The notes below the pieces were generated by a model, which made no database searches, was not told where the DNA came from, and saw nothing but the letters and a program-made list of their open reading frames with translations. The position numbers and the translations under genes were made by a program. From positions 1-24,594 of the IMG/VR virus record IMGVR_UViG_3300036770_003163: a stretch of 24,594 nt of DNA; one strand, 5' to 3'. Of the stretch, positions 601 to 21,948 are shown one piece after another; positions within the stretch are counted from its first letter, which is position 1; every line of letters begins with the position of its first letter. Source of the stretch: a virus (lineage: Duplodnaviria > Caudoviricetes).

Positions 601-2379
601 ATGGCAACAAGAATGCAACAGCGCAGAGGAACTGCAGCACAATGGACGGCTGCTAACCCAGTTCTCGCAGCAGGTGAAATTGGTTTTGAAACCGATACAA
701 GTAAATTTAAAATGGGTAACGGATCCTCTACATGGTCTGCATTGGAATACTTTGCCAACGCATCTGAACTAGCAGCACTTGTAAATGGTGCTCCAGGACT
801 TCTTGATACCCTTGACGAATTGGCACAAGCAGTAGGCGATGACCCACAGTTCTATTTAACAATTGGTCAGACAGTTACAAACCATACCAATGCTTCAACA
901 ATGGTACATGGTATTGCTGATACATCTGCTCTTGCAACTCTAACAGATGTTAATAATGCAGCAACAGGCGCTGCTTCAGATCTTTCAGATCACACATCAG
1001 CAACAACGACAGTTCATGGAATTGCCGATACTTCACTTTTGGCAACAACAGCAGATGTACAGGCAGCAGAAAGTGCAGCCTCTTCAGCACTAGGTGCACA
1101 CGAAGCACTTACACAATCAGTACATGGTATTGCTGACACATCGCTTCTTGCAACAACAGCAGATGTACAGGCAGCAGAAAGTTCCGCTGCTTCAGCACTA
1201 GGTGCACACGAAGCACTTACAGAAAATGTTCACGGTATTGTAAATACAGCAGATCTAGCAACACTATCAGACCTTACAGATGCAATTTCTGGTGCTACGG
1301 TAGACCAGTCTGCATTAGCAGGAGAAGGCATTGATTGGAATGCTTTAACAGAGCAGTTTGATATTGATTCAACAGTTGCAACAAAGACATATGCAGATAA
1401 TGCAGTCACAGATCATAACACAGAAACAGAAAATGTTCATGGTATTGCAAATACAGCACTTCTTGCAACTACAGCGAATGTAGCAACTGCAAAGGGTGAA
1501 GCAATTGATGCAGCAGCAGTGGCATCTGAAAACTATACAGACGCAGCAGTAGCAGCATTAACAAAGTCTTCAGTAGGGCTTGCAAATGTTGACAATACTT
1601 CAGATGCAGACAAGCCAGTTTCAACTGCTACACAAACAGCACTTGATGCAAAGGCATCATTATCTGGAGCAACATTCACAGGCTCAGTAGAAATTGATCA
1701 AAACCTAACAGTTGATGGAAACTTAACTATAAATGGTACAACATTCAGCGCTTCAGCAACATCTATTACAATTGAAGATAACATGGTCCAACTTGCTCAT
1801 GAAAATGCAGCAAATACAGTAGACCTTGGTCTTGTAGTAGCATATAACGATGGATCTGCAAAGCATGCAGGTATTGTAAGAGATGTTTCTGATGCTAAGT
1901 GGAAACTGTTTAAGGGAGTTGCAACAGAGCCAACTACAACTGTAGCATTTGGCGAAGGATCGCTAGATGATTTAGCAGTAGGAGCGCTAGAAGTAACAAC
2001 TGTAACAGCATCCTCTGGAGTCGTATTCTCAGATGGCACACAAACAAAAGAAGGCGTTCCATCACGAACACCAATTTCTCAAAAGACAGCATCTTATACT
2101 CTTTCTTCACTTTCTGAAAGAGATACATTGATTGAGTTTGATTCGACATCAGCAGTAACTATTTCAATTCCAACAGATGCACAAGTAGATTATCCAATTG
2201 GAACAACCCTAGATATTCTTCAAACAAATACAGGGCAAGTAACAGTTGCAGCAGGAACTCCTGCTACTACAACCGTTAACGCAACTCCTGGACTAAAGTT
2301 GAGAACAAGATGGTCCTCCGCTACCCTCCTAAAGAGAGCAGCAAACACTTGGGTCGTTTATGGCGATCTAACAGCGTAG
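601..2379 (+). CDS. Tail fibre protein (Mtd_N/hyaluronidase-type N-terminal domain, His-containing 36-aa repeats, phage tail repeat)
   Basis: SD AAGGAG. N-terminus QRRGTAAQWTAANPVLAAGEIGFETDT..KMGNG..W..L is typical of Mtd_N-type fibre anchors. Also contains the APGLLDTLDELAQAVGDDP fibre motif, the VGLANVDNTSDADKPVSTATQTALDAKA phage tail repeat and a C-terminal ..ATLLKRAANTWVVYGDL beta domain. Confidence 0.85.
   Translation: MATRMQQRRGTAAQWTAANPVLAAGEIGFETDTSKFKMGNGSSTWSALEYFANASELAALVNGAPGLLDTLDELAQAVGDDPQFYLTIGQTVTNHTNASTMVHGIADTSALATLTDVNNAATGAASDLSDHTSATTTVHGIADTSLLATTADVQAAESAASSALGAHEALTQSVHGIADTSLLATTADVQAAESSAASALGAHEALTENVHGIVNTADLATLSDLTDAISGATVDQSALAGEGIDWNALTEQFDIDSTVATKTYADNAVTDHNTETENVHGIANTALLATTANVATAKGEAIDAAAVASENYTDAAVAALTKSSVGLANVDNTSDADKPVSTATQTALDAKASLSGATFTGSVEIDQNLTVDGNLTINGTTFSASATSITIEDNMVQLAHENAANTVDLGLVVAYNDGSAKHAGIVRDVSDAKWKLFKGVATEPTTTVAFGEGSLDDLAVGALEVTTVTASSGVVFSDGTQTKEGVPSRTPISQKTASYTLSSLSERDTLIEFDSTSAVTISIPTDAQVDYPIGTTLDILQTNTGQVTVAAGTPATTTVNATPGLKLRTRWSSATLLKRAANTWVVYGDLTA
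904..1335 (+). repeat. 108-nt (36-aa) tandem repeat within the tail fibre
   Basis: VHGI codons start at 904, 1012, 1120 and 1228 (exact 108-nt period), with a fifth copy at 1435. The units at 1012 and 1120 are near-identical in DNA. Confidence 0.9.
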
Positions 2380-2408: not shown

Positions 2409-3326
2409 ATGGCAGCAGGTAAGAAGACAGGTAGAAAGTCCCAGGCATCAAATGACTTTTTGGAGCCATTAACACCAACCATTACTGGTGCGACAGATGT
2501 TGGAACAGGTCGTGCATATAACAATGGAGCGGTTGATGTTTCATTCACACTACCTGCGCTTTCTCCAGCAGCAACATCTTATACTGTAACATCATCACCT
2601 GGTGGATTTGTTGGAACAGGAGCATCGTCTCCAGTTAGAGTAACAGGTTTAGCATCTAATACTGCTTATACATTTACAATGACAGCAACAAATGCTGCAG
2701 GAACTTCTGCTGCATCTTCAGCATCTTCTTCAGTAACTGCAACAACAGTTCCAGCAACACCTTCAGCGCCAAGCGCAACTGCAGGAGTAGACAAGGACAC
2801 AGTTTCTTGGACTGCCCCAGCAAATGGTGGAAAAGCAATAACTGGATATACCTGGGCATCTTCAGATGGAAAGGGTGGATCAACCGCTTCAACATCTGTA
2901 GAAGTTTCACAAGAAGCAAACACAGCACAAACATATACTGTTTATGCAACTAATGCTAATGGAAACTCAGGAACTTCTGCATCATCAAATAGCGTAACAA
3001 CTATTGCTCCGTTCTTCCCGCCATTCTTCCCACCGTTCTTCCCATTCTTCCCCCCATTTTTCCCACCATTCTTCCCGTTCTTCCCACCGTTCTTCCCATT
3101 CTTCCCGTTCTTCCCATTCTTCCCACCATTCTTCCCATTCTTCCCGTTCTTCCCACCGTTCTTCCCATTCTTCCCGTTCTTCCCATTCTTCCCACCGTTC
3201 TTCCCATTTTTCCCGTTCTTCCCACCGTTCTTCCCACCAACATTTACTAGCGGAGGCTGCTCAGGATGCGCCAGATCATATTGCTGGCAAGCATGTCCAT
3301 CATGTTGCGGAAGTTGTGGATGTTAA
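2409..3326 (+). CDS. Two-fibronectin-type-III-domain protein with C-terminal (PFF/PPFF)n repeat and Cys-rich tail; probable virion appendage or modified-peptide precursor
   Basis: SD AGGAG. FN3 signatures VTGLASNTAYTFTMTATNAAGTS and VSWTAPANGGKAITGY..YTVYATNANGNS are followed by 77 aa of only Pro/Phe and then GGCSGCARSYCWQACPSCCGSCGC. Confidence 0.85.
   Translation: MAAGKKTGRKSQASNDFLEPLTPTITGATDVGTGRAYNNGAVDVSFTLPALSPAATSYTVTSSPGGFVGTGASSPVRVTGLASNTAYTFTMTATNAAGTSAASSASSSVTATTVPATPSAPSATAGVDKDTVSWTAPANGGKAITGYTWASSDGKGGSTASTSVEVSQEANTAQTYTVYATNANGNSGTSASSNSVTTIAPFFPPFFPPFFPFFPPFFPPFFPFFPPFFPFFPFFPFFPPFFPFFPFFPPFFPFFPFFPFFPPFFPFFPFFPPFFPPTFTSGGCSGCARSYCWQACPSCCGSCGC
3009..3239 (+). repeat. 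Pro/Phe coding repeat: 22 units of PFF or PPFF plus terminal PP (9- and 12-nt units CCR-TTC-TTC)
   Basis: Read directly from the sequence: 33 Pro and 44 Phe. 42 of the 44 Phe codons are TTC; Pro codons are CCA/CCG with one CCC. Confidence 0.97.
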
Positions 3327-3332
3327 TAAACA

Positions 3333-3341
3333 TGATATACT
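3333..3341 (+). promoter_or_regulatory. Extended -10 promoter element TGATATACT
   Basis: TGn+TATACT just after the stop of the FN3 gene and upstream of SD AAGGAG and the 3364 start. Confidence 0.55.
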
Positions 3342-3363
3342 TTAACAAAAGGAGATTTATACA

Positions 3364-3792
3364 ATGTATGCAATATTAGTAAAAGATACTGGCGATACCT
3401 ACGATGTAATCGCAGCACTTAGAACCACTGAAGAGATAAGAGTTGATCTTGATTTAGAGTGGGATAAAAATCTTCCTATAGTTGGTATGGACATTAACAA
3501 TCATAAAGAAACAGCAACTAAGGGCGCTAACTGGGATGGCACATCTTTTGATGGAACTGCAAATGAAGGATTTTTTGCATTATCACAAGAAGAAAAAGAT
3601 GCACATAGACAGTATGCATTTTTATGTGATAATAAAATAATTCATAGAATAAGCGCAGAAACTGGTAGTGAAAGGGCAGCACTATACGATGCTGCATTTG
3701 CTGGAGAAGTTATATTGGTAAAATGTGTTTTTGCTGTTAATGGAACAAAGGTTGTATACAACAAAACAACCAGAGAAATAACAGCAGCCTAA
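3364..3792 (+). CDS. Hypothetical protein, possibly a fibre-associated/chaperone protein
   Basis: Good SD (AAGGAG). KGANWDGTSF resembles the GWxYDGxxF segments of small proteins that follow phage fibre genes (recognised by eye only). Confidence 0.6.
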   Translation: MYAILVKDTGDTYDVIAALRTTEEIRVDLDLEWDKNLPIVGMDINNHKETATKGANWDGTSFDGTANEGFFALSQEEKDAHRQYAFLCDNKIIHRISAETGSERAALYDAAFAGEVILVKCVFAVNGTKVVYNKTTREITAA

Positions 3793-3813
3793 CAATTTTT
3801 ATAATTTTTTCTA

Positions 3814-3822
3814 TGATATAAT
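3814..3822 (+). promoter_or_regulatory. Extended -10 promoter element TGATATAAT heading the oxygenase operon
   Basis: TGn+TATAAT in an AT-rich gap, upstream of SD AAGGA and ATG 3851. Confidence 0.65.
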
Positions 3823-3850
3823 ATAGTTATATTTAAAACAAAGGAACTAT

Positions 3851-4564
3851 ATGGCAATTTATGATGAAAATGAAACTCCCTGGTTTACCAAGGATAGATC
3901 AGAGACAGCAACAAACAGATATCCTTCAAAAACTATAGGTAACAACATCTTAGTTGAAAATCCAGCACTTGGAATAAACCTATATAGAAATACATTTTCA
4001 AAAGAAGATTCTGAAAGATATATAAAAATTCTTGAGTCAAATTTGGGCGGTAATGGAAAATATAAATGGTCAGAAGCAAAAGTAACAAATTCTGATGTTC
4101 CAATTAAAAAGGCTAGAGATGCTGTAGATTTTAGATTTAAGCAAGAAAACTTAGGCCCACGAGATGAGCATAACGCAGAACTTCTTGATCTTCACGAAGA
4201 AATTTATCAAAAGTTAAAATTTTGTGTTGATGATTATGCACGGTATTGGGGAATAAATGTAATATATTATGAAGCATTTAACTTTGTAAAGTATGAAGGA
4301 GAAGGAACACATTTTAATATACATGCAGACCATGGTCCAATGTACAACTGTACAGTATCGGCTGTTGTATATATAAACGAAGACTACGAGGGTGGAGAAA
4401 TTAAATTTCCAAGAATGGATAATTATACTCACACTCCAAAAGTAGGAGACATTATCCTGTGTCCATCTAACTACATCTATGAGCATGCATCTTTACCAAT
4501 GAAAAAGGGAACCAAGTATTGTGTTGTCGTAATGACAGACATTAATGAACTAGGACACAAGTAG
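3851..4564 (+). CDS. 2OG-Fe(II) dioxygenase, prolyl-4-hydroxylase-like (#1)
   Basis: HxD (IHADH), YINEDYEGGEIKF, distal His plus Lys at +10 (EHASLPMKKGTKY). Confidence 0.9.
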   Translation: MAIYDENETPWFTKDRSETATNRYPSKTIGNNILVENPALGINLYRNTFSKEDSERYIKILESNLGGNGKYKWSEAKVTNSDVPIKKARDAVDFRFKQENLGPRDEHNAELLDLHEEIYQKLKFCVDDYARYWGINVIYYEAFNFVKYEGEGTHFNIHADHGPMYNCTVSAVVYINEDYEGGEIKFPRMDNYTHTPKVGDIILCPSNYIYEHASLPMKKGTKYCVVVMTDINELGHK

Positions 4565-5331
4565 TGTCCCTGGTTGCTATATTTAGATCATTCAGACCAT
4601 GGCTAGATAAAGAAAACATCTCAGTTCCAGTACCAACCCAAAAAGAAATCCCAGACTGGTATAAGGATGCAGACAGATTTGCTAAAATGCCTAATGGTGA
4701 ATATTATAAAGCCCCTAAAGCAGTTTGTCCATTTCCAAAAGAGGGAACAACTGACGACTATGGGAAAATTCCCACATGGAAAGCATGTCCAGCAATTATG
4801 GATGCATTTTCAACTGGTTATCTTTTTAAAACTCCTTGTGATTTAACTTTTTATAAAAATGAACAAGGAATAATAAATGTTAAAATTGATGATGTAAGGT
4901 ATAAAGATTTTTGCACACAAAGACCACCAATGCCACAATTTGAGCATCCTAAAGGATACTATCAGCATCATTTTGCTTGGAGTTCTCCATGGGGCTTAGA
5001 ATTGCCAGAAGGATATAGTGCGCTGTTTATGACCCCAATGAATAGGTTTGATCTACCATTTATGAATACGACTGGGATAGTTGATTCAGATAAGGTTCAT
5101 TTACTTGGGAGTTTTCCATTTTTTATTGCAGATGGTTGGGAAGGAACGCTACCAGCAGGAACCCCATATCTTCAGATACTTCCATTTAAACGAGAAAACT
5201 GGGAACATGAAGTTGAGATATTGGGACAATCAGAGATATATGGTAAAATTGTAGAGAACGCAAACTTTTATAGACAGCCAGATGGCGGGGTATATATTAA
5301 AAAAGTTTGGACAAGAAGAGAGTATAAATAG
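4564..5331 (+). CDS. DUF6065-like / oxygenase-cluster-associated hypothetical protein
   Basis: GTG start overlaps the previous TAG. Motifs TWKACPAIMDAFSTGY, GIVDSD and GTPYLQILPFKRE are typical of phage proteins found with 2OG oxygenases. No HxD..H triad recognised. Confidence 0.6.
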   Translation: MSLVAIFRSFRPWLDKENISVPVPTQKEIPDWYKDADRFAKMPNGEYYKAPKAVCPFPKEGTTDDYGKIPTWKACPAIMDAFSTGYLFKTPCDLTFYKNEQGIINVKIDDVRYKDFCTQRPPMPQFEHPKGYYQHHFAWSSPWGLELPEGYSALFMTPMNRFDLPFMNTTGIVDSDKVHLLGSFPFFIADGWEGTLPAGTPYLQILPFKRENWEHEVEILGQSEIYGKIVENANFYRQPDGGVYIKKVWTRREYK

Positions 5332-5339
5332 GAGACAAA

Positions 5340-6023
5340 ATGCAAACATGGTCAAACAAAGAAGATCTTGGAAATGGAATATTCTGTTATAGGGATGTTA
5401 TCAAAAAAGAATTTGATGTTATTAATAGGCTTGAGAATGTTCTAGGTTCTGTTGCTGGTTATGGAGAACTATCTCCAGAAGGCAAAAGATACCACTGGAT
5501 GCCAGCATATGTAGGGTATCAGCAACTAATGCCTGACTATAGAGACTGTGTAGATTTTAAATATAAAAAAACCGATATTGAAAATGATAAAAGTGAAGAC
5601 TCTATAAAACTTCAAGAGTTGTGGCAGGATGTTTATAATGCACAGGCAGCAGCAGTTGAAGACTATAGAAAAATATATAACATAATGCCATTAAAATATT
5701 GGGAAGCATTTAATTTTATTAAATATGGTCCAGGACAACACTTTATGGAGCATCACGATCATGGTTATTCATACAACTGTACGCTTTCACTGGTTGCTTA
5801 TGTAAATGATGACTACGACGGTGGAGAGTTGTTCTTTAGACTGCAAGGCTTAAATATTAAGCCAAAGGCTGGAGATCTTTATGTGTTCCCATCAAACTTT
5901 ATGTACCCTCATCAAGCAATGCCAGTTCATTCTGGAACTAAGTATTCAATTGTAACAATGCTAGACTATAGTAAAAAGTATCATACTCCAGACATGTATG
6001 ATCCAAAGTGGGATCAAGAATAA
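5340..6023 (+). CDS. 2OG-Fe(II) dioxygenase, prolyl-4-hydroxylase-like (#2), paralog of #1
   Basis: HxD (EHHDH), YVNDDYDGGELFF, PHQAMPVHSGTKY. Shares EAFNFxKY..HxDHG..YNCT with #1. Confidence 0.9.
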   Translation: MQTWSNKEDLGNGIFCYRDVIKKEFDVINRLENVLGSVAGYGELSPEGKRYHWMPAYVGYQQLMPDYRDCVDFKYKKTDIENDKSEDSIKLQELWQDVYNAQAAAVEDYRKIYNIMPLKYWEAFNFIKYGPGQHFMEHHDHGYSYNCTLSLVAYVNDDYDGGELFFRLQGLNIKPKAGDLYVFPSNFMYPHQAMPVHSGTKYSIVTMLDYSKKYHTPDMYDPKWDQE

Positions 6024-6742
6024 TGATAAACATATCGGTAGAAAAAATGAATGGGAACCCATTCAATATTTCTCCAATGTCAATTAAAAGGGACTGGATG
6101 GATGCTACATCAGAAAATCATGCCTATAGGTGTTTTCCAGTAACACAGGCAAATGTTGTTGGGTGGAGCATTTCATGCTCTCAAGACATATCTTTTATTT
6201 GGGATGGGATAAATGATCAAACTCAAGATCATGTAACAATTATTTCCGCTCCAGAAGGTTCATATACTGGCAGAGGTCAGTCTTCTATAAGTTTTAATAC
6301 TGGTTTAGTTTTTAGAACAGACAAAGATGTAAGTATTCTTACAATTAATCCAGTAAATTATTTTAGTGAAGATTTTGAAACAATGTCTAACCTAATTAGT
6401 TCTTCTTTTTATGATAACCCGCTTCCACTAGCAATTAAGGCAAAAGCAGCAAATAAAGAAATAACAATAAAGTCTGGAACGCCAATTGCCACCATAATTC
6501 CAATATCTTTGACTAATTTAAATAATACTACAATTGAAATTTTTAATTATATAGATGAGGATAGGTCAAGAACCAATGCCAATATTGCATATGGCGAAGC
6601 AGCACAGGTTATAAATTCTGGAGGGAATTGGACTGATTGGTATAGAGATGCGGTAAATGAAAAAGGTGAAAGTTTAGGGTCTCATGAAGTAAAAACCCTA
6701 AAACTTTATGTCAAGGATAATACGAACGGTGATACAATATGA
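6023..6742 (+). CDS. DUF6065 family protein
   Basis: Signature KRDWMDAT..HAYRCFPVTQANVVGW and KSGTPIATIIP. Start moved to ATG 6023 (TAATG overlap) from the track's GTG at 6008. Confidence 0.7.
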   Translation: MINISVEKMNGNPFNISPMSIKRDWMDATSENHAYRCFPVTQANVVGWSISCSQDISFIWDGINDQTQDHVTIISAPEGSYTGRGQSSISFNTGLVFRTDKDVSILTINPVNYFSEDFETMSNLISSSFYDNPLPLAIKAKAANKEITIKSGTPIATIIPISLTNLNNTTIEIFNYIDEDRSRTNANIAYGEAAQVINSGGNWTDWYRDAVNEKGESLGSHEVKTLKLYVKDNTNGDTI

Positions 6743-7413
6743 ATATGGATGAATATAAAGTAGTACAAAGAAAACCATCAATAACCCCTTCTGGATGGTT
6801 TGGTGATAGCAAAGATATGATTGTAGAGTTAGAAAACTTTATGACAGAAGAGGAAATAGTATTTTTAGAAAAGGCTGCAAAGTCATTAACAATTTGGGAT
6901 GTTACAGAAAGCCATGTAAATGAAAATGGTACAGTTGTTTATGAAGCATCTTATTGGAAAGATAGAGTTGCTACTAGTCCAACATTAGACAAAAACAATC
7001 CAGCCATTGCCCCAGTTATTGCTGGACTATTTGAAAGACTAAAGCCAATTGTAGAAGATTTTTATAAAGTAAAAGTTATTCCAACAGGAACAACAATAGT
7101 TAGATGGCTTCCAGGTCAATTTCAAAAACCTCATGCAGATAAAGAGTTGCATGAAGGCCCAGATGCAGGGCTTCCAAATGATTTTCCAAACTATGATCTT
7201 TCTAGTTTGTTTTATTTAAATGAAGACTATGAAGGTGGCGAACTATACTTCCCACTACAAGGTGTTCAATTTAAACCAAAAAAAGGTGCTGCCTACTTTT
7301 TCCCAGGGGATAAAAACTATATTCATGGAGTAACAGAAATTAAAAGCGGTATTAGATATACATGCCCATTTTTCTGGGAGATTACAGAGCATACAGGAGA
7401 TAGAAAACCATAA
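6739..7413 (+). CDS. 2OG-Fe(II) dioxygenase, prolyl-4-hydroxylase-like (#3)
   Basis: HxD (PHADK), YLNEDYEGGELYF, IHGVTEIKSGIRY. ATGA overlap with the previous gene. Confidence 0.9.
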   Translation: MNMDEYKVVQRKPSITPSGWFGDSKDMIVELENFMTEEEIVFLEKAAKSLTIWDVTESHVNENGTVVYEASYWKDRVATSPTLDKNNPAIAPVIAGLFERLKPIVEDFYKVKVIPTGTTIVRWLPGQFQKPHADKELHEGPDAGLPNDFPNYDLSSLFYLNEDYEGGELYFPLQGVQFKPKKGAAYFFPGDKNYIHGVTEIKSGIRYTCPFFWEITEHTGDRKP

Positions 7414-8291
7414 TGTCTATAGATTTAGAAGACTTAGATGTAATTGAAATATATCCTAAAATATTTGTATATAAAAATCTTTATAAGGATATTAATTTTA
7501 TATATCAGTCTTTAAAAGAGTCAGATGGAACAGAGGGATTTTTTAATCCATGGTCTAAATGGTCAGATTTTGGACAATATATTTCTCCAACATTTAAGGG
7601 ATATGACTATATTCTACAACTTAGAGACGTTAATGCCCTAGAAGTAAAAACAGAAAAAGAAAAAGAACATAAAGATATTCTATTAGAAATACTAAATAAT
7701 TTTTATATAGCAACAAAAGACTATATTAAAAAAAACAATGTTGATTTTGATGAAAATAGAATTGTTCCAAATATTAAAGATAAAAGCGGGAATCCAATAA
7801 AAGAGTGGGTATTTTCTGGACCATCTATCGCAAGGTATCGAACAGACATTACTGATCCAGTAGCAATGACATACCATACAGACTATATAAGAGAACCAAT
7901 AGTAAGTCCAGGACACAAGTTTGCAATTACTGCTCTAACATATTTTAATGATGATTATGAAGACGGAGAAATTGATTTTGTTGTAAATGGCGAGGCTTAT
8001 ATGTATAAGCCAGAGGCTGGAGATCTTATTGTTTTCCCATCTGGACACCCAGACTTCTTAATGTCCGAAAATCACATATATCTCCATGGTGTTATGCCAG
8101 CAAGAAATAACGCAAAATATCTATCAAGAATGTACTGGACAAAGTACTCTGTGGGTGATCCAGAATGGTTTGAAAATGAAGAAAAATTTGGTAAAGAAAA
8201 GTGGTATGATATGCAGCATGAGATTATGCAAAAATTTAGAGAAGACAATCCCAACAAGTTTAGTACCGAAAAAGAAAGAAGGATAAAGTGA
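7413..8291 (+). CDS. 2OG-Fe(II) dioxygenase, prolyl-4-hydroxylase-like (#4)
   Basis: HxD (YHTDY), YFNDDYEDGEIDF, LHGVMPARNNAKY. TAATG overlap. Confidence 0.88.
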   Translation: MSIDLEDLDVIEIYPKIFVYKNLYKDINFIYQSLKESDGTEGFFNPWSKWSDFGQYISPTFKGYDYILQLRDVNALEVKTEKEKEHKDILLEILNNFYIATKDYIKKNNVDFDENRIVPNIKDKSGNPIKEWVFSGPSIARYRTDITDPVAMTYHTDYIREPIVSPGHKFAITALTYFNDDYEDGEIDFVVNGEAYMYKPEAGDLIVFPSGHPDFLMSENHIYLHGVMPARNNAKYLSRMYWTKYSVGDPEWFENEEKFGKEKWYDMQHEIMQKFREDNPNKFSTEKERRIK

Positions 8292-9034
8292 ACCTAGAGA
8301 ATAAAAACAGAATAACTAAAGATATTGTTGTTTATGAGAACTTTATTGATGCAGAAACTTCTGCAAAACTTATAAAGGTTTTAGATAAGCATGCCGAACT
8401 GGGCACGATTAACTGGATGCCAATCTCTTTTTATGAATCATATTCGTCTGTATTGCCACAGGACAATGACGAGCATGTTGTTAATGAGGGATTGCCAAGT
8501 GATATTTTTTCACAAATGAAAAATGGTATTATTGAAGCAGTTGCAAGCGTTCATGACCTTGATCCTAAAATAATTTCTCAAATTGGATACCACACGCAAA
8601 AATGGGAGCCAGGAGCATATGCAAGAAAGCACTCTGATAATACGGATGAGCACGGACATTCTGGTGCTTTTACTAGAAGTAGATATGCTGCATTTTTATA
8701 TTTAAATGATAATTTTGAGGGCGGACTATTGCAATTCCCAGACCAAGATATAACAATTGAGCCTAAAGTTGGAATGCTTGCTGCATTTGACGGGGGATTT
8801 AATAATATGCACGAAGTAACCCTTATAACAAAAGGAGTAAGATACACTATTGGATCTTTCTGGGATGATCGTGAAGAAGATGCATACCCACAAGAACTAA
8901 GAGATGCTTGGGCAGCAGAAATGAAGGAAACTAGAGCCAAGCAAGAAATTGAAAGAGCGGAATGGCAAGAGTTGCTAAAACAAGGTTGGAAACTTGATGC
9001 TGACGGAAATAAGTATAAAGTTGAGGAACTATAG
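8288..9034 (+). CDS. 2OG-Fe(II) dioxygenase, prolyl-4-hydroxylase-like (#5)
   Basis: HxD (KHSDN), YLNDNFEGGLLQF, MHEVTLITKGVRY. GTGA overlap. Confidence 0.9.
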   Translation: MNLENKNRITKDIVVYENFIDAETSAKLIKVLDKHAELGTINWMPISFYESYSSVLPQDNDEHVVNEGLPSDIFSQMKNGIIEAVASVHDLDPKIISQIGYHTQKWEPGAYARKHSDNTDEHGHSGAFTRSRYAAFLYLNDNFEGGLLQFPDQDITIEPKVGMLAAFDGGFNNMHEVTLITKGVRYTIGSFWDDREEDAYPQELRDAWAAEMKETRAKQEIERAEWQELLKQGWKLDADGNKYKVEEL

Positions 9035-9697
9035 ATGGAAGTATTTTTAAAAAAAGAATTTGAAGATGCTGGTTATGATGTTGAGGTTTTTCATGAACAT
9101 GTTTTGTTTGTAAAAGACTTCTTGAAACCAGAAGAACTTGATACTCTTTTAAAAATAATCGAAACTACTCCCAATGAAGATTGGTCAATAGAGTATACAA
9201 AGAATCTTGCTAGATTTTGTATGGAAAAGTTTGGAAGAGATGATGTAGAAAACCTTGTTGCAGAAGGAAAGTTTGAAATTACCCAGGGATGGGAAGACAA
9301 AAACTTAAACATTACAACTGAGCAAATAAGTATAACTCTTCAGGGAAGGCTAGGAAGACTTTTAGAATTGGCAGATCCGTCTCTAGAACTTGCTGGGTTT
9401 GGAACTCTTCAAAGGATGCAGCCTGGGGTTGAATTAAAGTCTCATACAGATCAGCACACAGATCCGTCAATTAAATATGCTGCTATACTATATATTAATG
9501 ACGACTATAAGGATGGAACTTTATTCTTTAAAAATAAAGAAAATTCAGACTTAAGGCCAAAACCAGGAACCTTGCTCATTTTTCCAGGTAACGAAGAATA
9601 TGAGCATGGCGTAAGGCATGTAGGAGAAGGTCCTATAAGATATGTTACAGTAGGCTTTATGAAGGTAACAGGGTTTTATGATCAAAATAAGTACTAA
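9035..9697 (+). CDS. 2OG-Fe(II) dioxygenase, prolyl-4-hydroxylase-like (#6)
   Basis: HxD (SHTDQ), YINDDYKDGTLFF, EHGVRHVGEGPIRY. ATG directly follows the previous TAG. Confidence 0.9.
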   Translation: MEVFLKKEFEDAGYDVEVFHEHVLFVKDFLKPEELDTLLKIIETTPNEDWSIEYTKNLARFCMEKFGRDDVENLVAEGKFEITQGWEDKNLNITTEQISITLQGRLGRLLELADPSLELAGFGTLQRMQPGVELKSHTDQHTDPSIKYAAILYINDDYKDGTLFFKNKENSDLRPKPGTLLIFPGNEEYEHGVRHVGEGPIRYVTVGFMKVTGFYDQNKY

Positions 9698-9708
9698 GGA
9701 GATATGAT

Positions 9709-10338
9709 ATGGAAAGAGAAATACTAGAGGAAAAGGTTTACTATTACACAAATGTAATTGAAGACCCCAAGAAACTTGTTGACGCAATTGAAAATGACAA
9801 TAAGGATCCCTGGGGCGAGTGGATGGCATGCAGCGGTCAGCATTACGTTTATGGAACAGACAAGACAATTGCACTAACATCAGACTCTGACGAAAAAAAC
9901 AAATACATTTATGATACTTTAAAGAATGCGTTTGATGTAGTTGCAAGAGACTACGCTAAGGCACAAGGTATTACAGAAGAACCAAAACTATTTCCACAGT
10001 ATCCAATCAAGAAGTATCAGCCAGGAACATTTATGGGCGCTCACTTTGATCAACAAGAGGGTGACGAAAGACTAAAAGTTTCTTTTGTTATGTATCTTAA
10101 TGATGATTATGAGGGCGGAGAGATTTCTTTTACTATCGCCTCTCCAGAGGGAGTTTTGAGTCAGCCTAGCCCAGAGCCAGATTTTGCAGATGCCGAAGGC
10201 CACGGAGCATATAATTTTTATGTTAAGCCTAAAGCAGGAAGTATTATTGTGTTCCCACCATCTCCACCATATCATCACACCGCCCACTTGGTTAAGAGTG
10301 GCGAAAAGATTATGGTTCCTCAACACTGGATTCATTAA
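9709..10338 (+). CDS. 2OG-Fe(II) dioxygenase, prolyl-4-hydroxylase-like (#7)
   Basis: HxD (AHFDQ), YLNDDYEGGEISF, HHTAHLVKSGEK. SD AAGGAG. Confidence 0.9.
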   Translation: MEREILEEKVYYYTNVIEDPKKLVDAIENDNKDPWGEWMACSGQHYVYGTDKTIALTSDSDEKNKYIYDTLKNAFDVVARDYAKAQGITEEPKLFPQYPIKKYQPGTFMGAHFDQQEGDERLKVSFVMYLNDDYEGGEISFTIASPEGVLSQPSPEPDFADAEGHGAYNFYVKPKAGSIIVFPPSPPYHHTAHLVKSGEKIMVPQHWIH

Positions 10339-10340
10339 TA

Positions 10341-11003
10341 TTGAAAACAGCAATTGTTACTGGAGCAAGCAAGGGTGTAGGCTATGCAACTGTAAAACTT
10401 TTATCTGAAAGCGGATATAAGGTTATTGCGGTTTCAAGAGATTTGTCTAAAGTATCAGAACTAGTTTCTGATAATGTAGAGGTTTATAGGTTAGATATTA
10501 CAAGTTCGGAAGAAATTAAAAAGTTTTACGAAAAATACAAAGAAATAACTTTAGATCTGCTAGTTAATAATGCTGGTGGTGGTGCTGGACCAACAAGCAT
10601 AATTAACGAAACAATGGATAATTTTAGAAGGGCCTACGACATCAATGTTTCTGGTCCAATGTATTTATCACAACTTTTTGTTCCTTGTATGAAGAAGTCA
10701 GGCTCTCCAACTATAATTTTTATAAGTTCTTTAGGTGGCAAATACGCATATAGATCTGGTGGTAACTACACCAATGCAAAAAGAGGTATGATGGCATTGG
10801 TAGACACAATGAGACTAGAGTTTCCAGAGTATGGAATTAAAGTAACAGAAATTTGTCCAGGAACAATTGACACTCAGCAAGAAAAAAGAGAAATAGCAAT
10901 AACTGCAGAAGATATGGCAGAGTGTATTAGATGGGTTTCAGAACTTCCCAAGCATGTAAACATAAACCATATTGAGTTAAACCATATTCTTAGTGGCAAA
11001 TAA
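10341..11003 (+). CDS. Short-chain dehydrogenase/reductase, YdfG-like (probably NADP-dependent)
   Basis: TGASKGVG Rossmann motif, basic SR after beta-2, NNAG, catalytic S..YTNAK, PG, and C-terminal LPKHVNINHIEL as in the YdfG family. Confidence 0.88.
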   Translation: MKTAIVTGASKGVGYATVKLLSESGYKVIAVSRDLSKVSELVSDNVEVYRLDITSSEEIKKFYEKYKEITLDLLVNNAGGGAGPTSIINETMDNFRRAYDINVSGPMYLSQLFVPCMKKSGSPTIIFISSLGGKYAYRSGGNYTNAKRGMMALVDTMRLEFPEYGIKVTEICPGTIDTQQEKREIAITAEDMAECIRWVSELPKHVNINHIELNHILSGK

Positions 11004-13163: not shown

Positions 13164-16100
13164 ATGTCTAGCCCATCAAACCTCTATGCCGAAAAGGTGT
13201 TCGCCGAGCATCCAACAGGGCTGTGGGCTCTTGATGATCAAGCAGACTATATATCTCTTATTTCAGAGTCTCAAAGAAACTTATCTAACTGGACAATAAT
13301 CGGCGGGACATACGAGGATTATACCCAATCAGTAGATGAGCCATTCATAGGTAGTTATGTTGGTAAAATAACAGCAACACCAACAAGCAGCGAGTCTGCC
13401 TCAATTACTGCTATAAGTAATGACATAATGAACCTTCAGGATCTTAATCAATATCTTAGAACATTTTCTGTTGGTGGTTATTTTTATTCTCAGAGTTCGT
13501 ATATCGCTGGTTTTGAAATAGGCTATCAATATGAGGATACAACTAGTGGACAAATGGTAACACATTTAAAAAACTATGATACTGTTATAAATAATAGTTG
13601 GGTTTTTATATCAGAAACTTTTGATACACCTCCAGATGACACAAATTTTAGATTAGTTTTTAAAATTAATTTTATTGGAGGATCAGAAACTGAAGACGCA
13701 TTTTTAGTAAATGGAATAAGCCTTGGTCAATGGTCAGAAGAATTTGCATCAACATCTTTAGGAGTTGCTGCAATTGATATACCATCAACAATTTCTATTG
13801 CTCCACAAAAAGGTGTTGTTGCAAAGTGCTACGGCCTTCAGGATCTTGACGCATACTATTTAGTTTCAGACAACATGCTTAAAGCAAAAAACTTAGGCAT
13901 TCCATTTGTTTATGGAACATCAAGCCTTACAGCGTTATACCCTAACGAAACCGATCCTTCTTTGATTATTCCTGGAGCAGGATTTTTAAATGAGTCTGGA
14001 AAATTTAGAGAATATACTTTGGAAACCTGGCTTAGAGTAAATTCTTATACAAACGAAACAAAAAGAATTATTGGACCAATTGCATCTGACGACGGTATAT
14101 ATGTTGATGGACCGTCAATAGGACTTAAGGTTAATTCTGAATATAAAACATACTATGTTGGTGAGTGGACAAGACCAATGCTAGTTCATTTAAGAGTAGG
14201 CAAAGATGTTATTTCTCTTGTTATTAACGGACAAGAAGTTATATCGATAGACTATATTAGAGAATCTTTAATAGTTCCCAATATGCTTGATAGTAATGGT
14301 AAGGATCAGGATTGGATAGGATTTTATGCACATGAAGATGTTTATCCTATAGAGATTGACTGTGTCGGTATTTATCCATATGTAGTTGCAACTGCAATGG
14401 CAAAAAGAAGATTTGTTTTTGGTCAAGGGGTTGAAATACCAGAAAACATAAATACCTCCTATAGTGGAACATCTGTTTTTGTTGATTATGCCTTTGCAGA
14501 TTACACAGCAAACTATTCATACCCCAAAATTGGTTCTTGGCAACAAGGGTTTAATGACAATACATCTATAGTAAATAAATCGTTATCTATATCGTCTGCG
14601 CCACTTCCAACAATATCTTTATCTTCAAAAACCGAAACTGAATTGCTATCAGATTGCAAACTTGCTCAAAGTTCTGATCCAATAAATTTCTTTTCATTTA
14701 GGCCTAACTCATCCTGGGACAGCGTTGCTGGATACCTTTTCTTTGAAAATTTTGATTTTATAAAAGAGCCTATATCTGCATTCTATGGTTGTTTTAGACT
14801 TCCACAATCTTCACCAACAAAACAAACGCTTTTTAGAATTGAAAAAGAAAATACCAGCAGTTATTTTGAAATAGAATTATTAAACAATCAAATATCCTAT
14901 GTGATAAATTATGATGGAGTTTCAGAAACAATATACTCTCCGTTAATTGCTGAATCACAAGAATTGATTGACATTGGACTAAACATACCAGCATTTGTCT
15001 CAAGATTTGGAAATCCAGCAGCAGATTTTTTTGGATCATTGTCAGACCTGAGATTATATGTAGGCGGTAAAAAAGATAAGACTCAAACTTTTACTGGTAA
15101 AATATATAAGATAGGTTTTTGTAGTGTTTATAATTTTCAAAAAATTAGAACTCTTTTTAATGAGTTGGGCGTTCCTGTTTGGAACGAAGACCTGTTTGCT
15201 GTTTATCAAAATAATCAATTAATAAATATTGACGGTGGAATAGATACAACATCTTTGCCACCATATGGGTCACCTACTGGAACTGCAAACGGAGCAATAA
15301 GTGGCGGTGGAGTCGTGGTACCAGACGAGGATTTTCTCATGGACCATACCGCAAGTTATACTCTTGTTCCAGATCAAATTTTTGATACATACAAACTTAC
15401 AGTTGCTGCCAATGGATATTGGGAAGACCAAATTCCATTAACATATTTTGCTGAATCTGTTTTAGATAAGAGAGGCGATCAATATTTTGATCTAGATTTT
15501 ATTCAGTTTAATATTGATTATCCAGTACCATCAAAAACAATTGCAATAGAGACTGATCCAATAGATTGGACATATGCAGATTTGGCAAACGAATATGGCT
15601 TGCCAATTCAAAGAACCTATGAGTCTTTGGATAATTATTTATTTACTGGTTATAATGATTATGAAGACTTAAAAAATAAAATAGCAAAAGATTATAGATA
15701 TGATACAGACGGTGCAATCGTAAAAACATATGTAACCTTTCAGTATACAGAATTAGGGGCAAATCAAACCCCATTCTATTTTACAAAAACAGAACGGCCA
15801 TCTAGGGATGGAATTCTTATTCCTGGATCAGATTGGATGACGACAAAATACGAAGTTGTTGACAACATGATAATTTATCCTCCAGCGGTGGTTGATTTTA
15901 ACGATCTGTCTATTGTTACTCATATTGATATAAACGTCAAAAATACTCAAGCAAACAATGTCAATATTAAAAAACTTTCTTATGCTTCTCAGGCTTTAAA
16001 CGAATCAGATGCAAGTCCAGTCGGGACTAGGTTTGGTACGCCAATGTATCCATATACAAAAACAGGAATTTACTATAACTTTAAAGCAAACAATCCATTT

Positions 16101-16880
16101 TCAATATACACTGGGTCTTCTCCATATTTATATCTTACAAAGACTAGTGGTGTTCAAATAAAAGGAAGGTATGATCCATTAATAAATCGTGGTTTATCTA
16201 TTCCAATAAATTCTAGCAGGGCAAATAATTTTAAAGCGATTGCAGCCCAGATGGCAATCAGATTTGACGGAGACTATTTCCCATATGCTCCAACACAAAT
16301 ATTTGAAATAGAAAGCAAGTCCTCCTATATAAAGTTCTACATGGTTGCTAGTGATCCTAGTGGAAGAAGAGCAAAAATATATGCAATTGATGCAAAAACT
16401 GGTTTAGTACAGAACGGAATAGGGTTTTACTGGAATGGAAAAATTGTTAAGGAGCCAGTTTTAACTTTGCAAGAGTGGGGGTTTCTGGGAATAAACTTTG
16501 CTGATAGTTTAGATTTTTCATATTTTGAGGGGGCTATAAGATTAACTGGCCCACTACTATTTAACAGCATATCTTACTACCAGTCTACAAACCTTCAAGA
16601 GGTTCAAAATATATCGGAGCGCCCATGGTTTAGAGTAAAGGTTTTGTCTGGCCTAACCCTAGACTGGGAGTTCTGGAATATAGGTTCTTTTAACTGGAAC
16701 AAGGTTCTTGTTCTAGCAGAAACAAGTTATTATGGTGTAAACCCATCAGAGGTTTATAAGAGTTATACTGGAACCAATAAGATTATTGTAGGTGATAACG
16801 CCCCCATAAGTATTGGAAATTATTCTTATACCCTATTTAACGACATATTCTGGAACAAGTTTACGGTTGATCCAGTTTAA
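13164..16880 (+). CDS. Large virion structural protein with LamG/concanavalin-A-like domains (minor tail/baseplate or receptor-binding)
   Basis: N-terminal AEHPTGLWALDD, YTLETWLR and ISLVINGQEV resemble LamG-type lectin folds. Beta-rich and aromatic-rich, and it sits among structural genes. Confidence 0.6.
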   Translation: MSSPSNLYAEKVFAEHPTGLWALDDQADYISLISESQRNLSNWTIIGGTYEDYTQSVDEPFIGSYVGKITATPTSSESASITAISNDIMNLQDLNQYLRTFSVGGYFYSQSSYIAGFEIGYQYEDTTSGQMVTHLKNYDTVINNSWVFISETFDTPPDDTNFRLVFKINFIGGSETEDAFLVNGISLGQWSEEFASTSLGVAAIDIPSTISIAPQKGVVAKCYGLQDLDAYYLVSDNMLKAKNLGIPFVYGTSSLTALYPNETDPSLIIPGAGFLNESGKFREYTLETWLRVNSYTNETKRIIGPIASDDGIYVDGPSIGLKVNSEYKTYYVGEWTRPMLVHLRVGKDVISLVINGQEVISIDYIRESLIVPNMLDSNGKDQDWIGFYAHEDVYPIEIDCVGIYPYVVATAMAKRRFVFGQGVEIPENINTSYSGTSVFVDYAFADYTANYSYPKIGSWQQGFNDNTSIVNKSLSISSAPLPTISLSSKTETELLSDCKLAQSSDPINFFSFRPNSSWDSVAGYLFFENFDFIKEPISAFYGCFRLPQSSPTKQTLFRIEKENTSSYFEIELLNNQISYVINYDGVSETIYSPLIAESQELIDIGLNIPAFVSRFGNPAADFFGSLSDLRLYVGGKKDKTQTFTGKIYKIGFCSVYNFQKIRTLFNELGVPVWNEDLFAVYQNNQLINIDGGIDTTSLPPYGSPTGTANGAISGGGVVVPDEDFLMDHTASYTLVPDQIFDTYKLTVAANGYWEDQIPLTYFAESVLDKRGDQYFDLDFIQFNIDYPVPSKTIAIETDPIDWTYADLANEYGLPIQRTYESLDNYLFTGYNDYEDLKNKIAKDYRYDTDGAIVKTYVTFQYTELGANQTPFYFTKTERPSRDGILIPGSDWMTTKYEVVDNMIIYPPAVVDFNDLSIVTHIDINVKNTQANNVNIKKLSYASQALNESDASPVGTRFGTPMYPYTKTGIYYNFKANNPFSIYTGSSPYLYLTKTSGVQIKGRYDPLINRGLSIPINSSRANNFKAIAAQMAIRFDGDYFPYAPTQIFEIESKSSYIKFYMVASDPSGRRAKIYAIDAKTGLVQNGIGFYWNGKIVKEPVLTLQEWGFLGINFADSLDFSYFEGAIRLTGPLLFNSISYYQSTNLQEVQNISERPWFRVKVLSGLTLDWEFWNIGSFNWNKVLVLAETSYYGVNPSEVYKSYTGTNKIIVGDNAPISIGNYSYTLFNDIFWNKFTVDPV

Positions 16881-21510: not shown

Positions 21511-21948
21511 ATGGAAAATAATGAATACAATAAGCCATTTGTAGCAGAAGATTCACCTCAGCCAGTTCTTGTAGAAACACCAGCAGAACCAGTTGCTGAG
21601 CCAGTTGCTGAGCCAGTTGCTGAACCAGTTGCTGAGCCAGTTGCTGAGCCAGTTGCTGAGCCAGTTGCTGTAGAAGAGCCAGCAGAAGAGCCAGTACAGG
21701 CATTGGGCTTTACAAAGACAGGTGCAATCGGATCAATGGCAGCAGATGGTCCAAAGAAGACTATTAAGCAGCCACATCAAGATTCAAGCAAGGTAGCAAT
21801 ACACTCAACAAAGAATGTTCGTTGGGAAGAAGTCGGAGTGCTTTACAGAGGTTACAATATCGTAACAAAAGAGCAAGCAGACAAGTGGCTAACTCGTTCA
21901 CATGTACGAATCGCAACACCCGAAGAAGTCAAAAAGGTTTTAGGGTAA
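21511..21948 (+). CDS. Hypothetical protein with (EPVA)7 repeat, head-associated position
   Basis: Strong SD. Acidic Pro-rich N-terminus and a small globular C-terminal domain. Lies between the capsid gene and the connector. Confidence 0.75.
   Translation: MENNEYNKPFVAEDSPQPVLVETPAEPVAEPVAEPVAEPVAEPVAEPVAEPVAVEEPAEEPVQALGFTKTGAIGSMAADGPKKTIKQPHQDSSKVAIHSTKNVRWEEVGVLYRGYNIVTKEQADKWLTRSHVRIATPEEVKKVLG
21586..21669 (+). repeat. 12-nt tandem repeat GARCCAGTTGCT x7 (EPVA)
   Basis: Read directly from the sequence. Confidence 0.95.

Follow-up and report, generated by a model that had tools for sequence, protein, structure and literature searches.

The stretch of DNA analysed here (hereafter, the window) comprises the 24,594 nt of IMGVR_UViG_3300036770_003163, a record of an uncultured phage (Caudoviricetes) whose host is likely an actinobacterium; the system of interest spans positions 2,409-11,003 (Table 1). 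Our ORF, Pfam and gap analysis bears out the layout in the original prediction, namely an FN3-FN3-(PFF/PPFF)22-Cys8 protein, one small gene and ten closely packed genes. The repeat protein (ORF 2409-3326, 305 aa) opens with a basic peptide in which K5, G8, S11, N15, D16, F17 and P20 are invariant across 47 homologues. A Pfam fn3 match at residues 41-106 is followed by a second FN3 domain that aligns with the first at 50% identity (68 aa, E 6e-9). Residues 201-277 consist of P and F only (33 P, 44 F), arranged as 22 PFF/PPFF units with a closing PP, and lead directly into a 28-residue tip containing 8 Cys. The promoter-like motif TGnTATAMT matches eight times, always on the + strand (3.3 matches expected; eight reached in 1 of 100 shuffles).

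Table 1. Features of the repeat-protein locus and the adjoining gene block, in window positions.
Feature	Position	Strand	Basis or remark
Tail-fibre-like protein, Mtd_N start, conserved C-terminal domain	601..2379	+	Pfam PF18454; PHROG tail fibre/minor tail matches
Conserved basic N-terminal peptide (repeat-protein residues 1-20)	2409..2468	+	candidate virion-docking segment, function inferred
Two fibronectin type III domains	2472..3008	+	Pfam fn3 (41-106); 50% mutual identity
77-residue Pro/Phe tract, 22 PFF/PPFF units	3009..3239	+	likely substrate; co-variation with O1
Cys8 tip	3240..3326	+	tip class exchangeable with three others
TGnTATAMT promoter-like motif before gene 3364	3333..3341	+	intergenic
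Small protein accompanying Cys tips (gene 3364)	3364..3792	+	candidate tip partner or assembly factor
TGnTATAMT promoter-like motif before ten-gene block	3814..3822	+	intergenic
O1, 2OG-Fe(II) oxygenase, Lys type	3851..4564	+	tracks lone-proline unit F-P-[F/Y]; predicted prolyl hydroxylase
D1, DUF6065-like, dUTPase/dCTP-deaminase-like fold	4564..5331	+	motif-3-like segment only; invariant Cys75
O2, 2OG-Fe(II) oxygenase, Lys type	5340..6023	+	O1 paralogue (36%); near-universal; Pro-Pro units as predicted target
D2, DUF6065 protein	6023..6742	+	passes Pfam DUF6065; no dUTPase motif found; invariant Cys37
O3, 2OG-Fe(II) oxygenase, Arg type	6739..7413	+	missing together with D2 and O5 in FF-free clade
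O4, 2OG-Fe(II) oxygenase, Lys type	7413..8291	+	variable, 77/121 loci
O5, 2OG-Fe(II) oxygenase, Arg type	8288..9034	+	PF13640, intact triad
O6, 2OG-Fe(II) oxygenase, Arg type	9035..9697	+	69/101 lone-Pro loci, 0/20 others
O7, 2OG-Fe(II) oxygenase, Lys type	9709..10338	+	PF13640, intact triad
Classical SDR, accessory	10341..11003	+	motifs intact; 46/121 loci

The tract is neither a chance product nor an artefact, because its Pro codons vary synonymously (20 CCA, 12 CCG, 1 CCC) and homologous tracts of 23-181 aa occur in 121 non-redundant phage loci, which form our comparison set. Contigs of run X3, which comes from the same study as the possible source runs, match the tract flanks with 0-1 differences but end inside the repeat, so the exact unit count depends on the window assembly. 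In related genomes, tracts also occur inside other fibre-region proteins of up to 1561 aa, and at two loci (L246, L182) a tract with a Cys tip follows a short N-terminus that has no FN3 domain. We considered and rejected a collagen/collagen-hydroxylase system, in which every third substrate residue would be Gly: the window tract contains none, Gly makes up 2.2% of residues over the 121 tracts, and only the FF-G-PP-G variants of L393 and L572 approach the collagen pattern.

The ten genes (3851-11003) are separated by -1, 8, -1, -4, -1, -4, 0, 11 and 2 nt. As originally claimed, seven encode 2OG-Fe(II) oxygenases with intact H-x-D...H plus K/R triads, all seven above the Pfam PF13640 cut-off (O1 H158/D160/H212/K222; O2 138/140/191/K201; O3 132/134/196/R206; O4 155/157/225/K235; O5 115/117/175/R185; O6 137/139/191/R202; O7 112/114/189/K200). 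None of the window oxygenases reaches an NCBIfam family cut-off, and their prolyl-hydroxylase matches are distant. The best PDB match of the O1/O2 profile is the prolyl 4-hydroxylase of B. anthracis (3itq, 5hv0; E 1e-6 over 83 positions), with the Glu, Tyr, aromatic and HxD positions aligned, ahead of lysyl hydroxylase and PKHD-type enzymes (E 0.001-0.007); single-sequence searches also retrieve prolyl and lysyl hydroxylases, weakly. O3 weakly matches the prolyl 4-hydroxylase of chlorovirus PBCV-1 (PDB 5c5t, E 0.011), an enzyme on which Eriksson et al. reportedly published in 1999. The window enzymes resemble these stand-alone catalytic domains, and O1, O2, O4 and O7 have Lys at the 2OG site, as prolyl 4-hydroxylases do. 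In contrast, the bacterial and chlorovirus proteins are single enzymes rather than arrays, the matches span less than half of the domain, and activity on a Pro/Phe repeat is only predicted here.

Only D2 passes the Pfam DUF6065 cut-off. D1 is linked to this family by phrog_7084, by hhalign (probability 86, E 4.6e-6) and by ESM Atlas clusters at 0.97, with DUF6065 present in 12-23% of the cluster members. The top fold matches for the D1 model are without exception trimeric dUTPases or dCTP deaminases (Z 9.5, rmsd 3.6, 129 aligned residues), and hhalign ties D2 to the D1 fold. Identity to these enzymes is 7-15%, however, and a search with patterns for the five dUTPase catalytic motifs recovered one of five in D1 (motif-3-like) and none in D2. 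Unlike true trimeric dUTPases, D1 and D2 each have an invariant Cys in place of the motifs and are co-inherited with the oxygenases. The SDR reached no specific family cut-off.

The original prediction proposed comparing repeat length or composition with enzyme number in relatives, and across the 121 loci repeat content was found to co-vary with the presence of O1. All 101 loci with the lone-proline unit F-P-[F/Y] have O1, compared with 0 of the 20 without it, one of which carries a divergent O1-grade enzyme that was scored as negative. The same 101 loci kept O4 in 59 cases, O6 in 69 and the SDR in 45; O2 is near-universal, as is Pro-Pro. In an unsupervised k-mer scan (147 loci), FPF was the best predictor of O1 (phi 0.96), and both misses were FPY tracts. 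A 56-locus set gathered after the hypothesis was on record contained 38 loci with both unit and O1, 17 with neither, one with the unit only and none with O1 only; a further 52-locus set contained 51 with neither and one with both, giving 107 of 108 concordant loci in the two later sets combined. Closely related cassettes provide a minimal pair: L449-451 and L454-457 have PPYF units with O2 and D1, and L452-453 have PYF units with O1, O2 and D1, although the repeat proteins are 89-97% and the O2 proteins 86-95% identical and the tip is the same. The minimal cassette also occurs in a second phage architecture, which differs in capsid family and has a tail sheath. In three complete lone-Pro-free genomes, we found neither an O1 orthologue (the best matches, at 36-45%, are O2 genes) nor an F-P-[FY]-F-P coding pattern anywhere. 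Since the presence of O1 coincides almost perfectly with that of one repeat unit, the repeat is likely the target of the enzymes. By this comparison, the tract is the likeliest substrate, as first proposed, and the idea that separate enzymes serve the P of PFF and the P of PPFF holds for O1. The idea of Phe modification draws its support from a single FF-free clade that lacks O3, D2 and O5, with L390 and L472 as exceptions.

Several observations temper the co-variation. The FN3 tree gives four starred pairs (p 0.125; 11 pairs on all branches) and the O2 tree two starred pairs and five changes, one of them from the wrong paralogue. Only three to four independent unit/O1 changes are well supported, so a sign test is unable to reach 0.05. 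L390 and L578, with PPPF-type repeats, have an enzyme in the O1 grade, outside the O2 clade, without F-P-[F/Y], and L531 was discordant by the first unit definition, which was narrowed afterwards. Because O1 mostly adjoins the tract, block exchange could explain some of the contrasts. In a different reading, the array comprises auxiliary metabolic or nucleotide enzymes (for small molecules, nucleotides or oxidative stress) that happen to have the fibre genes on one side and ribonucleotide reductase on the other, and the repeat link reflects hitchhiking in a recombining cassette. The D1 fold fits this reading, as does the block ending at ribonucleotide reductase in the window lineage; halovirus D1 homologues lie between ribonucleotide reductase and fibre genes with no annotated oxygenase within 7 kb. 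Complete genomes contain 10-12 oxygenase matches each, and in related genomes further oxygenases and D1/D2-like genes are located in metabolic regions at a distance from the tract, some oxygenases by peroxiredoxin or glutathione peroxidase-like genes. The original prediction regarded arrays apart from repeat genes as evidence against it, and to some extent they exist: besides these distant genes, a 19-locus lineage (L658-L676, records 12-38% complete) has D2, O3, O7, SDR, O5 and O2 orthologues with no adjacent tract. Hitchhiking is nevertheless a poor fit to a one-residue unit change paired with a one-gene loss in the near-identical cassettes above. O1 is kept throughout the lone-Pro loci though its neighbours come and go, concordance extends to loci at which O1 and the tract are not neighbours (L012, L377, L530, L548), and D1 and D2 lack four and all five dUTPase motif patterns, respectively. 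We consider this reading improbable for the array as a whole; it may apply to O4, O6 and the SDR.

The repeat gene follows a fibre gene and lies in the virion module. A simple end-motif test places a gene ending in the C-terminal domain type of the 601..2379 product directly 5' of the repeat gene in 94 of the 121 loci, and this gene order makes the tail-fibre-like product a likely docking partner. The position in the tail-fibre module, the structural domains and the fibre-type caps in relatives all fit a virion fibre or appendage. The tips fall into four classes (Cys 48, short 44, Hint 26, S74 3), and the 47 loci with the full O1-O7 and D1 set include 28 Cys, 15 short, 3 Hint and 1 S74 tip. 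No enzyme follows tip type; only gene 3364 goes with the Cys tip. The part of the first reading that made the Cys tail a substrate therefore fails, since the tip is swappable and no enzyme tracks it. Homologues of gene 3364 accompany Cys tips in 31 of 31 cases by BLAST and 34 of 35 by profile, and are absent at 14 of the 48 Cys-tip loci. Its product model (pLDDT 94.7) has no clear fold match (best: a Pam3 fibre chain, Z 3.5, rmsd 4.5, 52 aligned), and a feature score of 0.81 to Caudo_TAP clusters is a weak lead towards tail-fibre assembly.

A precursor gene beside tailoring enzymes, the gene order seen across the 121 loci, also invites a RiPP-like reading, in which the tract, alone or together with the Cys tail, would be cut out after modification and released as a peptide acting on the host or competitors. 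The FN3-less proteins of L246 and L182 would suit it, as would the self-cleaving-type caps located behind the tract at 29 of the 121 loci. Cleavage by Hint and S74 domains removes the cap, however, and the tract would stay attached to the FN3 part. The arrays contain no recognised protease or transporter, no RiPP leader protease, recognition element or exporter was found among the window genes, and the N-terminal part consists of folded FN3 domains. Variable tract length, tracts within large fibre-region proteins and the presence of a fibre gene 5' of the repeat gene at no fewer than 94 of the 121 loci also speak against release. The released peptide that the original prediction allowed for is thus less likely than a virion appendage, and we regard the RiPP-like reading as very improbable. 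The caps recall tail spikes and fibres whose C-terminal cap removes itself (Peptidase S74 chaperone, Hint), in that relatives end in a Hint-like domain (26/121) or an S74 start motif; unlike these, the window protein has a Cys tip, and in relatives the S74 domain is divided between two genes.

On the best reading of these gene-level patterns, the phage likely encodes enzymes for hydroxylating an appendage of its virion: the oxygenases would hydroxylate the Pro/Phe repeat of the neighbouring protein, which would be displayed at the tail-fibre end. We are fairly confident that O1 and O2 would recognise the tract, O1 through the lone proline and O2 through the Pro-Pro unit. The reaction would, somewhat less surely, be prolyl hydroxylation as in prolyl 4-hydroxylases. 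More tentatively, O3, O5, O7 and D2 could make further changes at Phe-Phe or the second ring position, with O4, O6 and the SDR as optional extras. The repeat protein would probably dock on the upstream fibre via its N-terminal peptide and FN3 domains; its tip, either a Cys knot together with gene 3364 or a Hint or S74 cap that removes itself, would be exchangeable and would not serve as substrate. The polyproline-like stalk would be very hydrophobic, and hydroxylation would make it stiffer or more soluble, or alter its binding. Co-variation indicates recognition rather than chemistry, so the tract might instead be a recruiting tag or folding client that the enzymes and DUF6065 proteins bind unit-specifically while acting elsewhere (on the tip, FN3, other virion proteins or an attached group) or only chaperoning. 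The DUF6065 proteins do resemble repurposed trimeric scaffolds, and several fibre-region proteins of one genome bear tracts in a tag-like manner. That all seven metal triads are intact, that the nearest solved relatives hydroxylate proline or lysine of repeat peptides, and that tip type is followed by no enzyme make this a decidedly improbable account. Hydroxylation of the appendage could extend to a modular "modification code", which we regard as rather unlikely in its full form: each oxygenase would read one unit (lone Pro, Pro-Pro, Phe-Phe) of a Gly-free Pro/Phe polymer, DUF6065 would be a new dUTPase-fold tailoring or scaffolding class, and phages of abundant freshwater actinobacteria would swap repeat grammar and enzyme set jointly, giving chemically different virion surface polymers, including hydroxylated Phe in a ribosomal protein.

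Known systems share parts of this arrangement. Iyer et al. 2010 (PMC2938197) describe a tandem dioxygenase array in the Synechococcus phage Syn9 and propose secondary-metabolite synthesis for (cyano)phage arrays, which would favour a metabolic role here as well; section 12 predicts bacterial operons of 2OG oxygenases and sulfotransferases with collagen-like or tail-collar proteins. Shared with the window are the run of many divergent oxygenases and the proposed hydroxylation, followed by sulfation, of a repeat or fibre protein encoded alongside them; L387 has sulfotransferase (PF03567) and Asp/Asn hydroxylase genes 3' of the repeat gene. In contrast, the relevant passages of that paper name no adjacent substrate for phage arrays and describe no unit-by-enzyme co-variation, and the window block has no JmjC or halogenase and a Gly-free Pro/Phe polymer as its predicted substrate. 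Mimivirus L230 hydroxylates viral collagen present in particles (PMC9614988) and is likewise a virus-encoded 2OG oxygenase acting on its own repeat-bearing particle proteins, a case shown in particles. As described there, L230 is one bifunctional lysyl hydroxylase/glycosyltransferase of a eukaryotic giant virus, acting on Lys in Gly-X-Y collagen; here, a phage has up to 11 oxygenases and Pro/Phe units.

Genes for 2OG oxygenases rank with the most common accessory genes in aquatic phages and are mostly assigned to host metabolism; in a review of Baltic Sea viruses, the purpose of viral prolyl 4-hydroxylase is described as cryptic (PMC9301287). What is new here is that repeat content predicts enzyme content, so that the genomes point to a substrate and a site preference for phage 2OG oxygenases; an estimated 830-1200 stored IMG/VR stretches contain either the tract pattern or that of D2. 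The two- and three-enzyme cassettes form a natural minimal pair that reduces the question to a peptide assay. If the reading is true, many phage 2OG oxygenase genes would encode virion-maturation enzymes, collagen-like hydroxylation would occur in phages on a non-collagen polymer, DUF6065 would for the first time be placed in a functional setting, and the enzymes would hydroxylate aromatic-rich peptides in a sequence-selective manner.

ORF, Pfam and motif analysis bore out the gene anatomy put forward in the original prediction, in which a protein made of two FN3 domains, a Pro/Phe tract and a Cys tail is followed by one small gene and an oxygenase-rich block. The tract of this repeat protein comprises 77 residues, exclusively Pro (33) and Phe (44), which form 22 PFF/PPFF units; the tail has 28 residues including eight Cys. 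Downstream of the small gene (gene 3364) lie ten genes with an intergenic spacing of -4 to 11 nt: seven encode PF13640 oxygenases (O1-O7), two encode DUF6065-like proteins (D1 and D2) and one an SDR. The oxygenases share only 20-36% pairwise identity, and all seven have an intact H-x-D...H with Lys (O1, O2, O4, O7) or Arg (O3, O5, O6) as the basic residue. Because Pro codons vary along the tract and 42 of its 44 Phe codons are TTC, a bias unlike that of the enzymes (mostly TTT; the capsid gene has TTC at 10 of 15), the repeat is maintained at the protein level.

The window is a tailed-phage segment, with a fibre-like gene upstream of the block and ribonucleotide reductase (RNR), portal, prohead protease and capsid genes downstream. 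The closest cultured relatives of the capsid are from Streptomyces phages (41%), and four of five related records, three of these complete (113-116 kb), carry whiB. Since whiB is described as an actinobacterial host marker (PMC6802176), we infer an actinobacterial host. The motif TGnTATAMT occurs eight times in the window, always on the coding strand and six times between genes, preceding the fibre gene, gene 3364, O1 and RNR among others; a generic sigma-70 scan of the window found 33 promoters against 33 expected. Public runs containing at least half of the stretch come from one subsurface study, which may be the source, and from three freshwater studies. Two RNA runs (X19, X20) yielded contigs of relatives at ~92% identity, which bear on neither transcription nor gene ranking. 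With the low-complexity filter on, the repeat protein had no match among 50,697 GenBank phage records, and GenBank phage searches found no cultured phage carrying the cassette. The tract pattern hit six MAG contigs from unrelated taxa in 185,579 prokaryotic genomes; those examined show the same phage gene order, and we read the six as misbinned phage.

Positions of features in the window and in related loci (L handles denote loci or records of related phages)
Feature	Position	Strand	Remarks
Repeat protein	window 2409-3326	+	two FN3 domains, then Pro/Phe tract, then Cys tail
Intergenic TGnTATAMT, candidate phage promoter	window 554, 3333, 3814, 11058, 16883, 21484	coding strand	motif scan
1238-aa gene	window 13164-16880		before portal module; relatives keep it at 29-84%; no Pfam or PHROG match
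145-aa protein with (AEPV)n repeat	window 21511-21948		after capsid gene
Repeat protein without FN3	L246:9881-10417; also L182		short N-terminus, 115-residue tract, Cys tip
Optional array insert	L005:13868-14323		conserved 151-aa unknown, after D2
Optional array insert	L009:8620-9252		methyltransferase-like ORF preceding SDR; no Pfam hit
Optional array insert	L072:9727-10500		glutathione peroxidase-like gene
Optional array insert	L010:3934-4173		Cys-rich DUF6171-like ORF
Halovirus DUF6065-like gene	L225:6866-7702, L226:6866-7750		HRTV-8, HF2

Related loci were gathered by the repeat protein, its pattern, D1, D2 or O2 and are thus not a random phage sample; distant relatives were reached by two unranked DNA-pattern scans, one for the tract and one for D2. 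A tract lay upstream of a D gene in 371 loci. Keeping those that were whole and bounded by a flanking marker gene left 198, and removal of redundancy left 121; D1 or D2 is present in all 121 by construction of the set. Oxygenase orthologous groups were defined by score clustering and trees. Of 76 new loci found via D1, an upstream tract is seen in 66, and each of the remaining 10 terminates within 1,400 nt of D1. The pattern scans also revealed tracts in several fibre-region proteins of a single genome, the largest of 1,561 aa, and showed that the FN3 repeat protein can follow a second grammar, FF-x-PP-x. Four loci (L393, L572, L372, L537) carry FF-G-PP-G/N/S tracts in which every third residue is small and frequently Gly, nearing collagen Gly-X-Y.

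The composition of the tract predicts one enzyme. O1 is present in all 101 loci whose tract contains the lone-Pro unit F-P-[F/Y] and in none of the 20 without it; the same 101 loci retain O4 in 59, O6 in 69 and the SDR in 45 cases. In a blind scan of 2-4-mers across 147 loci, FPF was the top O1 predictor (phi 0.96), and both misses were FPY tracts. We had recorded the lone-Pro/O1 hypothesis before retrieving a metagenome set, in which 72 loci were long enough and 56 had a tract: 38 carried both unit and O1, 17 neither, one the unit alone and none O1 alone. In L531, the sole exception, a single Gly-Tyr-Pro-Phe stands at the end of the tail; the unit, at first defined as [FY]P[FY], was then narrowed to F-P-[FY]. 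Another 80 loci, mostly one large clade, contributed 52 tracts (51 with neither, one with both). O1 is missing from long pure PPFF, PPYF or PPHF tracts (L352, L396, L573, L692), the lone-Pro share of units in O1 loci has a median of half, and in three complete lone-Pro-free genomes neither an O1 at another site nor an F-P-[FY]-F-P coding pattern is present. The number of oxygenases gave rho -0.10 with the number of unit types and rho 0.26, uncorrected for phylogeny, with tract length.

Joint change of repeat and O1 is cleanest in a tight group, L449-457: seven members (L449-451, L454-457) combine PPYF units with O2 and D1 alone, and two (L452-453) combine PYF units, at equal tract length, with O1 in addition to O2 and D1. 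Between the two sets, repeat proteins are 89-97% and O2 86-95% identical. The phage of L454-457 has a different architecture, marked by a tail sheath and a capsid of another family, so the cassette moves as a unit. Fibre, repeat protein, O2 and D1 recur there at about 80-97% identity, and the gene next after the cassette, there and in L449-453, is unclassified with a sulfotransferase-like motif.

Independent events are few. On the FN3 tree there are four starred pairs, all concordant (p 0.125), and 11 on all branches; the O2 tree gives two starred pairs and five changes, one owing to a wrong paralogue in L561. Two loci with PPPF-type repeats, L390 and L578, have an enzyme that groups with O1 sequences and not within the O2 clade; as a result O2 is counted in 120 of 121 loci and L390 breaks the O1 rule. 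A single FF-free clade (L037, L041, L453) is the source of the link between Phe-Phe and D2, O3, O5 and O7, with L390 and L472 as exceptions. An association of D1 with Gly-Pro or Tyr/His-Phe units in O1-free loci, seen post hoc and with exceptions L589 and L390, may reflect ancestry.

Counting against strict linkage of arrays to repeat genes are 19 loci of another lineage, which have an array and no nearby tract. That lineage has orthologues of D2, O3, O7, SDR, O5 and O2, often O4, and lacks O1 and D1; its records (12-38% complete) contain no in-frame tract patterns and no fibre domain, and a search for a complete genome returned fragments only; a remote substrate may exist. Two tract-pattern matches in this lineage were rejected, since they fell out of frame within unrelated ORFs. 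This different, probably larger phage lineage (L658-L676, L574, L590) places O2/O3/O5/O7/D2/SDR amid unrelated genes, with neither fibre nor repeat gene near the array. Complete relatives have 10-12 oxygenase matches each, some of which lie in metabolic regions alongside D1- or D2-like genes. Such arrangements fit an unrelated metabolic role, with the array associated with the repeat by hitchhiking; set against the O1 rule, we regard this as improbable. In 52 GenBank records, mostly haloviruses, a DUF6065-like gene lies between RNR and Gly-rich fibre/adhesin genes, and the halovirus D1 homologues have no annotated oxygenase within 7 kb.

Among solved structures the O1/O2 sequence profile matches the prolyl 4-hydroxylase of Bacillus anthracis best, at E 1e-6; Glu, Tyr, one aromatic position and HxD line up between them. 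Lysyl hydroxylase and PKHD-type enzymes come next, and single sequences return the same names, weakly. From this resemblance O1/O2 are predicted to work like a prolyl 4-hydroxylase, which falls short of identifying them as one. The D1 model has a trimeric dUTPase-like fold (pLDDT 87, Z 9.5, rmsd 3.6, 129 aligned); a D1 profile search of PDB sequences gave nothing below E 0.7. D1 retains one and D2 none of five dUTPase motif patterns, and each carries an invariant Cys within a segment that is homologous between the two. D1/D2 may be scaffolds or tailoring enzymes. That the enzymes bind the tract without modifying it would also accommodate the co-variation; given the intact oxygenase sites, we consider this somewhat less probable still than hitchhiking.

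As a proposed substrate, the Cys tail was rejected. Tips, the part after the tract, are Cys-rich in 48 of the 121 loci, a short end in 44, a Hint-like domain in 26 and an S74 start motif in 3 (by our tip classes; other scans gave more S74). The full O1-O7 plus D1 set (47 loci) occurs with all four (Cys 28, short 15, Hint 3, S74 1), and the enzymes therefore do not follow the Cys tail. Gene 3364 does track it: 34 of its 35 profile matches lie behind a Cys tip, with eight starred pairs and zero opposite (median p 0.03), and it is absent from 14 of 48 Cys tips. Its product gave a confident structure model, with no Foldseek match to the PDB at E<=0.001 and no VIA match at Z>=5 among the matches listed. 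At eight loci (L073, L075, L145, L257, L276, L392, L544, L557) a Peptidase S74 chaperone is split, the start motif ending the repeat protein and the remainder forming a separate ORF of 93-105 aa; PF13884 was found in both ORFs tested. L109, L116 and L120 have a (Val-Gly)n run between tract and Cys tip. Hint and S74 domains self-remove in known proteins, and loss of such a cap would make the tract the free end of the FN3 protein. Of the two products originally suggested, a virion appendage thus fits better than a released peptide, and a RiPP-like product, despite its precedent of precursors beside tailoring enzymes, seems very unlikely.

Taking together what is directly observed (anatomy, intact sites, gene order, co-variation and cassette transfer), we think it probable that the cassette hydroxylates the adjacent Pro/Phe repeat of a virion appendage. 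O1 would hydroxylate the lone Pro and O2 one Pro of Pro-Pro; O3, O5, O7 and D2 would add further changes, perhaps at Phe. The repeat protein, in which seven of residues 1-20 are invariant, would dock on the upstream fibre; in 94 of 121 loci the gene in front of the repeat gene has a fibre-type end, as judged by a simple motif test.

A full-text search, with most subscription papers outside its coverage, found no literature on the cassette and no match for DUF6065. Iyer et al. 2010 (PMC2938197) describe tandem phage dioxygenase arrays, for which metabolites are proposed, as well as bacterial operons whose oxygenases are predicted to hydroxylate collagen-like or tail-collar proteins. Elsewhere the role of viral P4H is termed cryptic (PMC9301287), and a lake-phage paper assigns a gene of this type to host metabolism (PMC10611076). 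Mimivirus demonstrably uses L230 to hydroxylate the collagen of its own particles (PMC9614988). That a virus encodes hydroxylation of a structural repeat is therefore already known in kind; what would set the phage cassette apart is a Gly-free substrate, a large number of enzymes and a unit-to-enzyme rule that can be tested.
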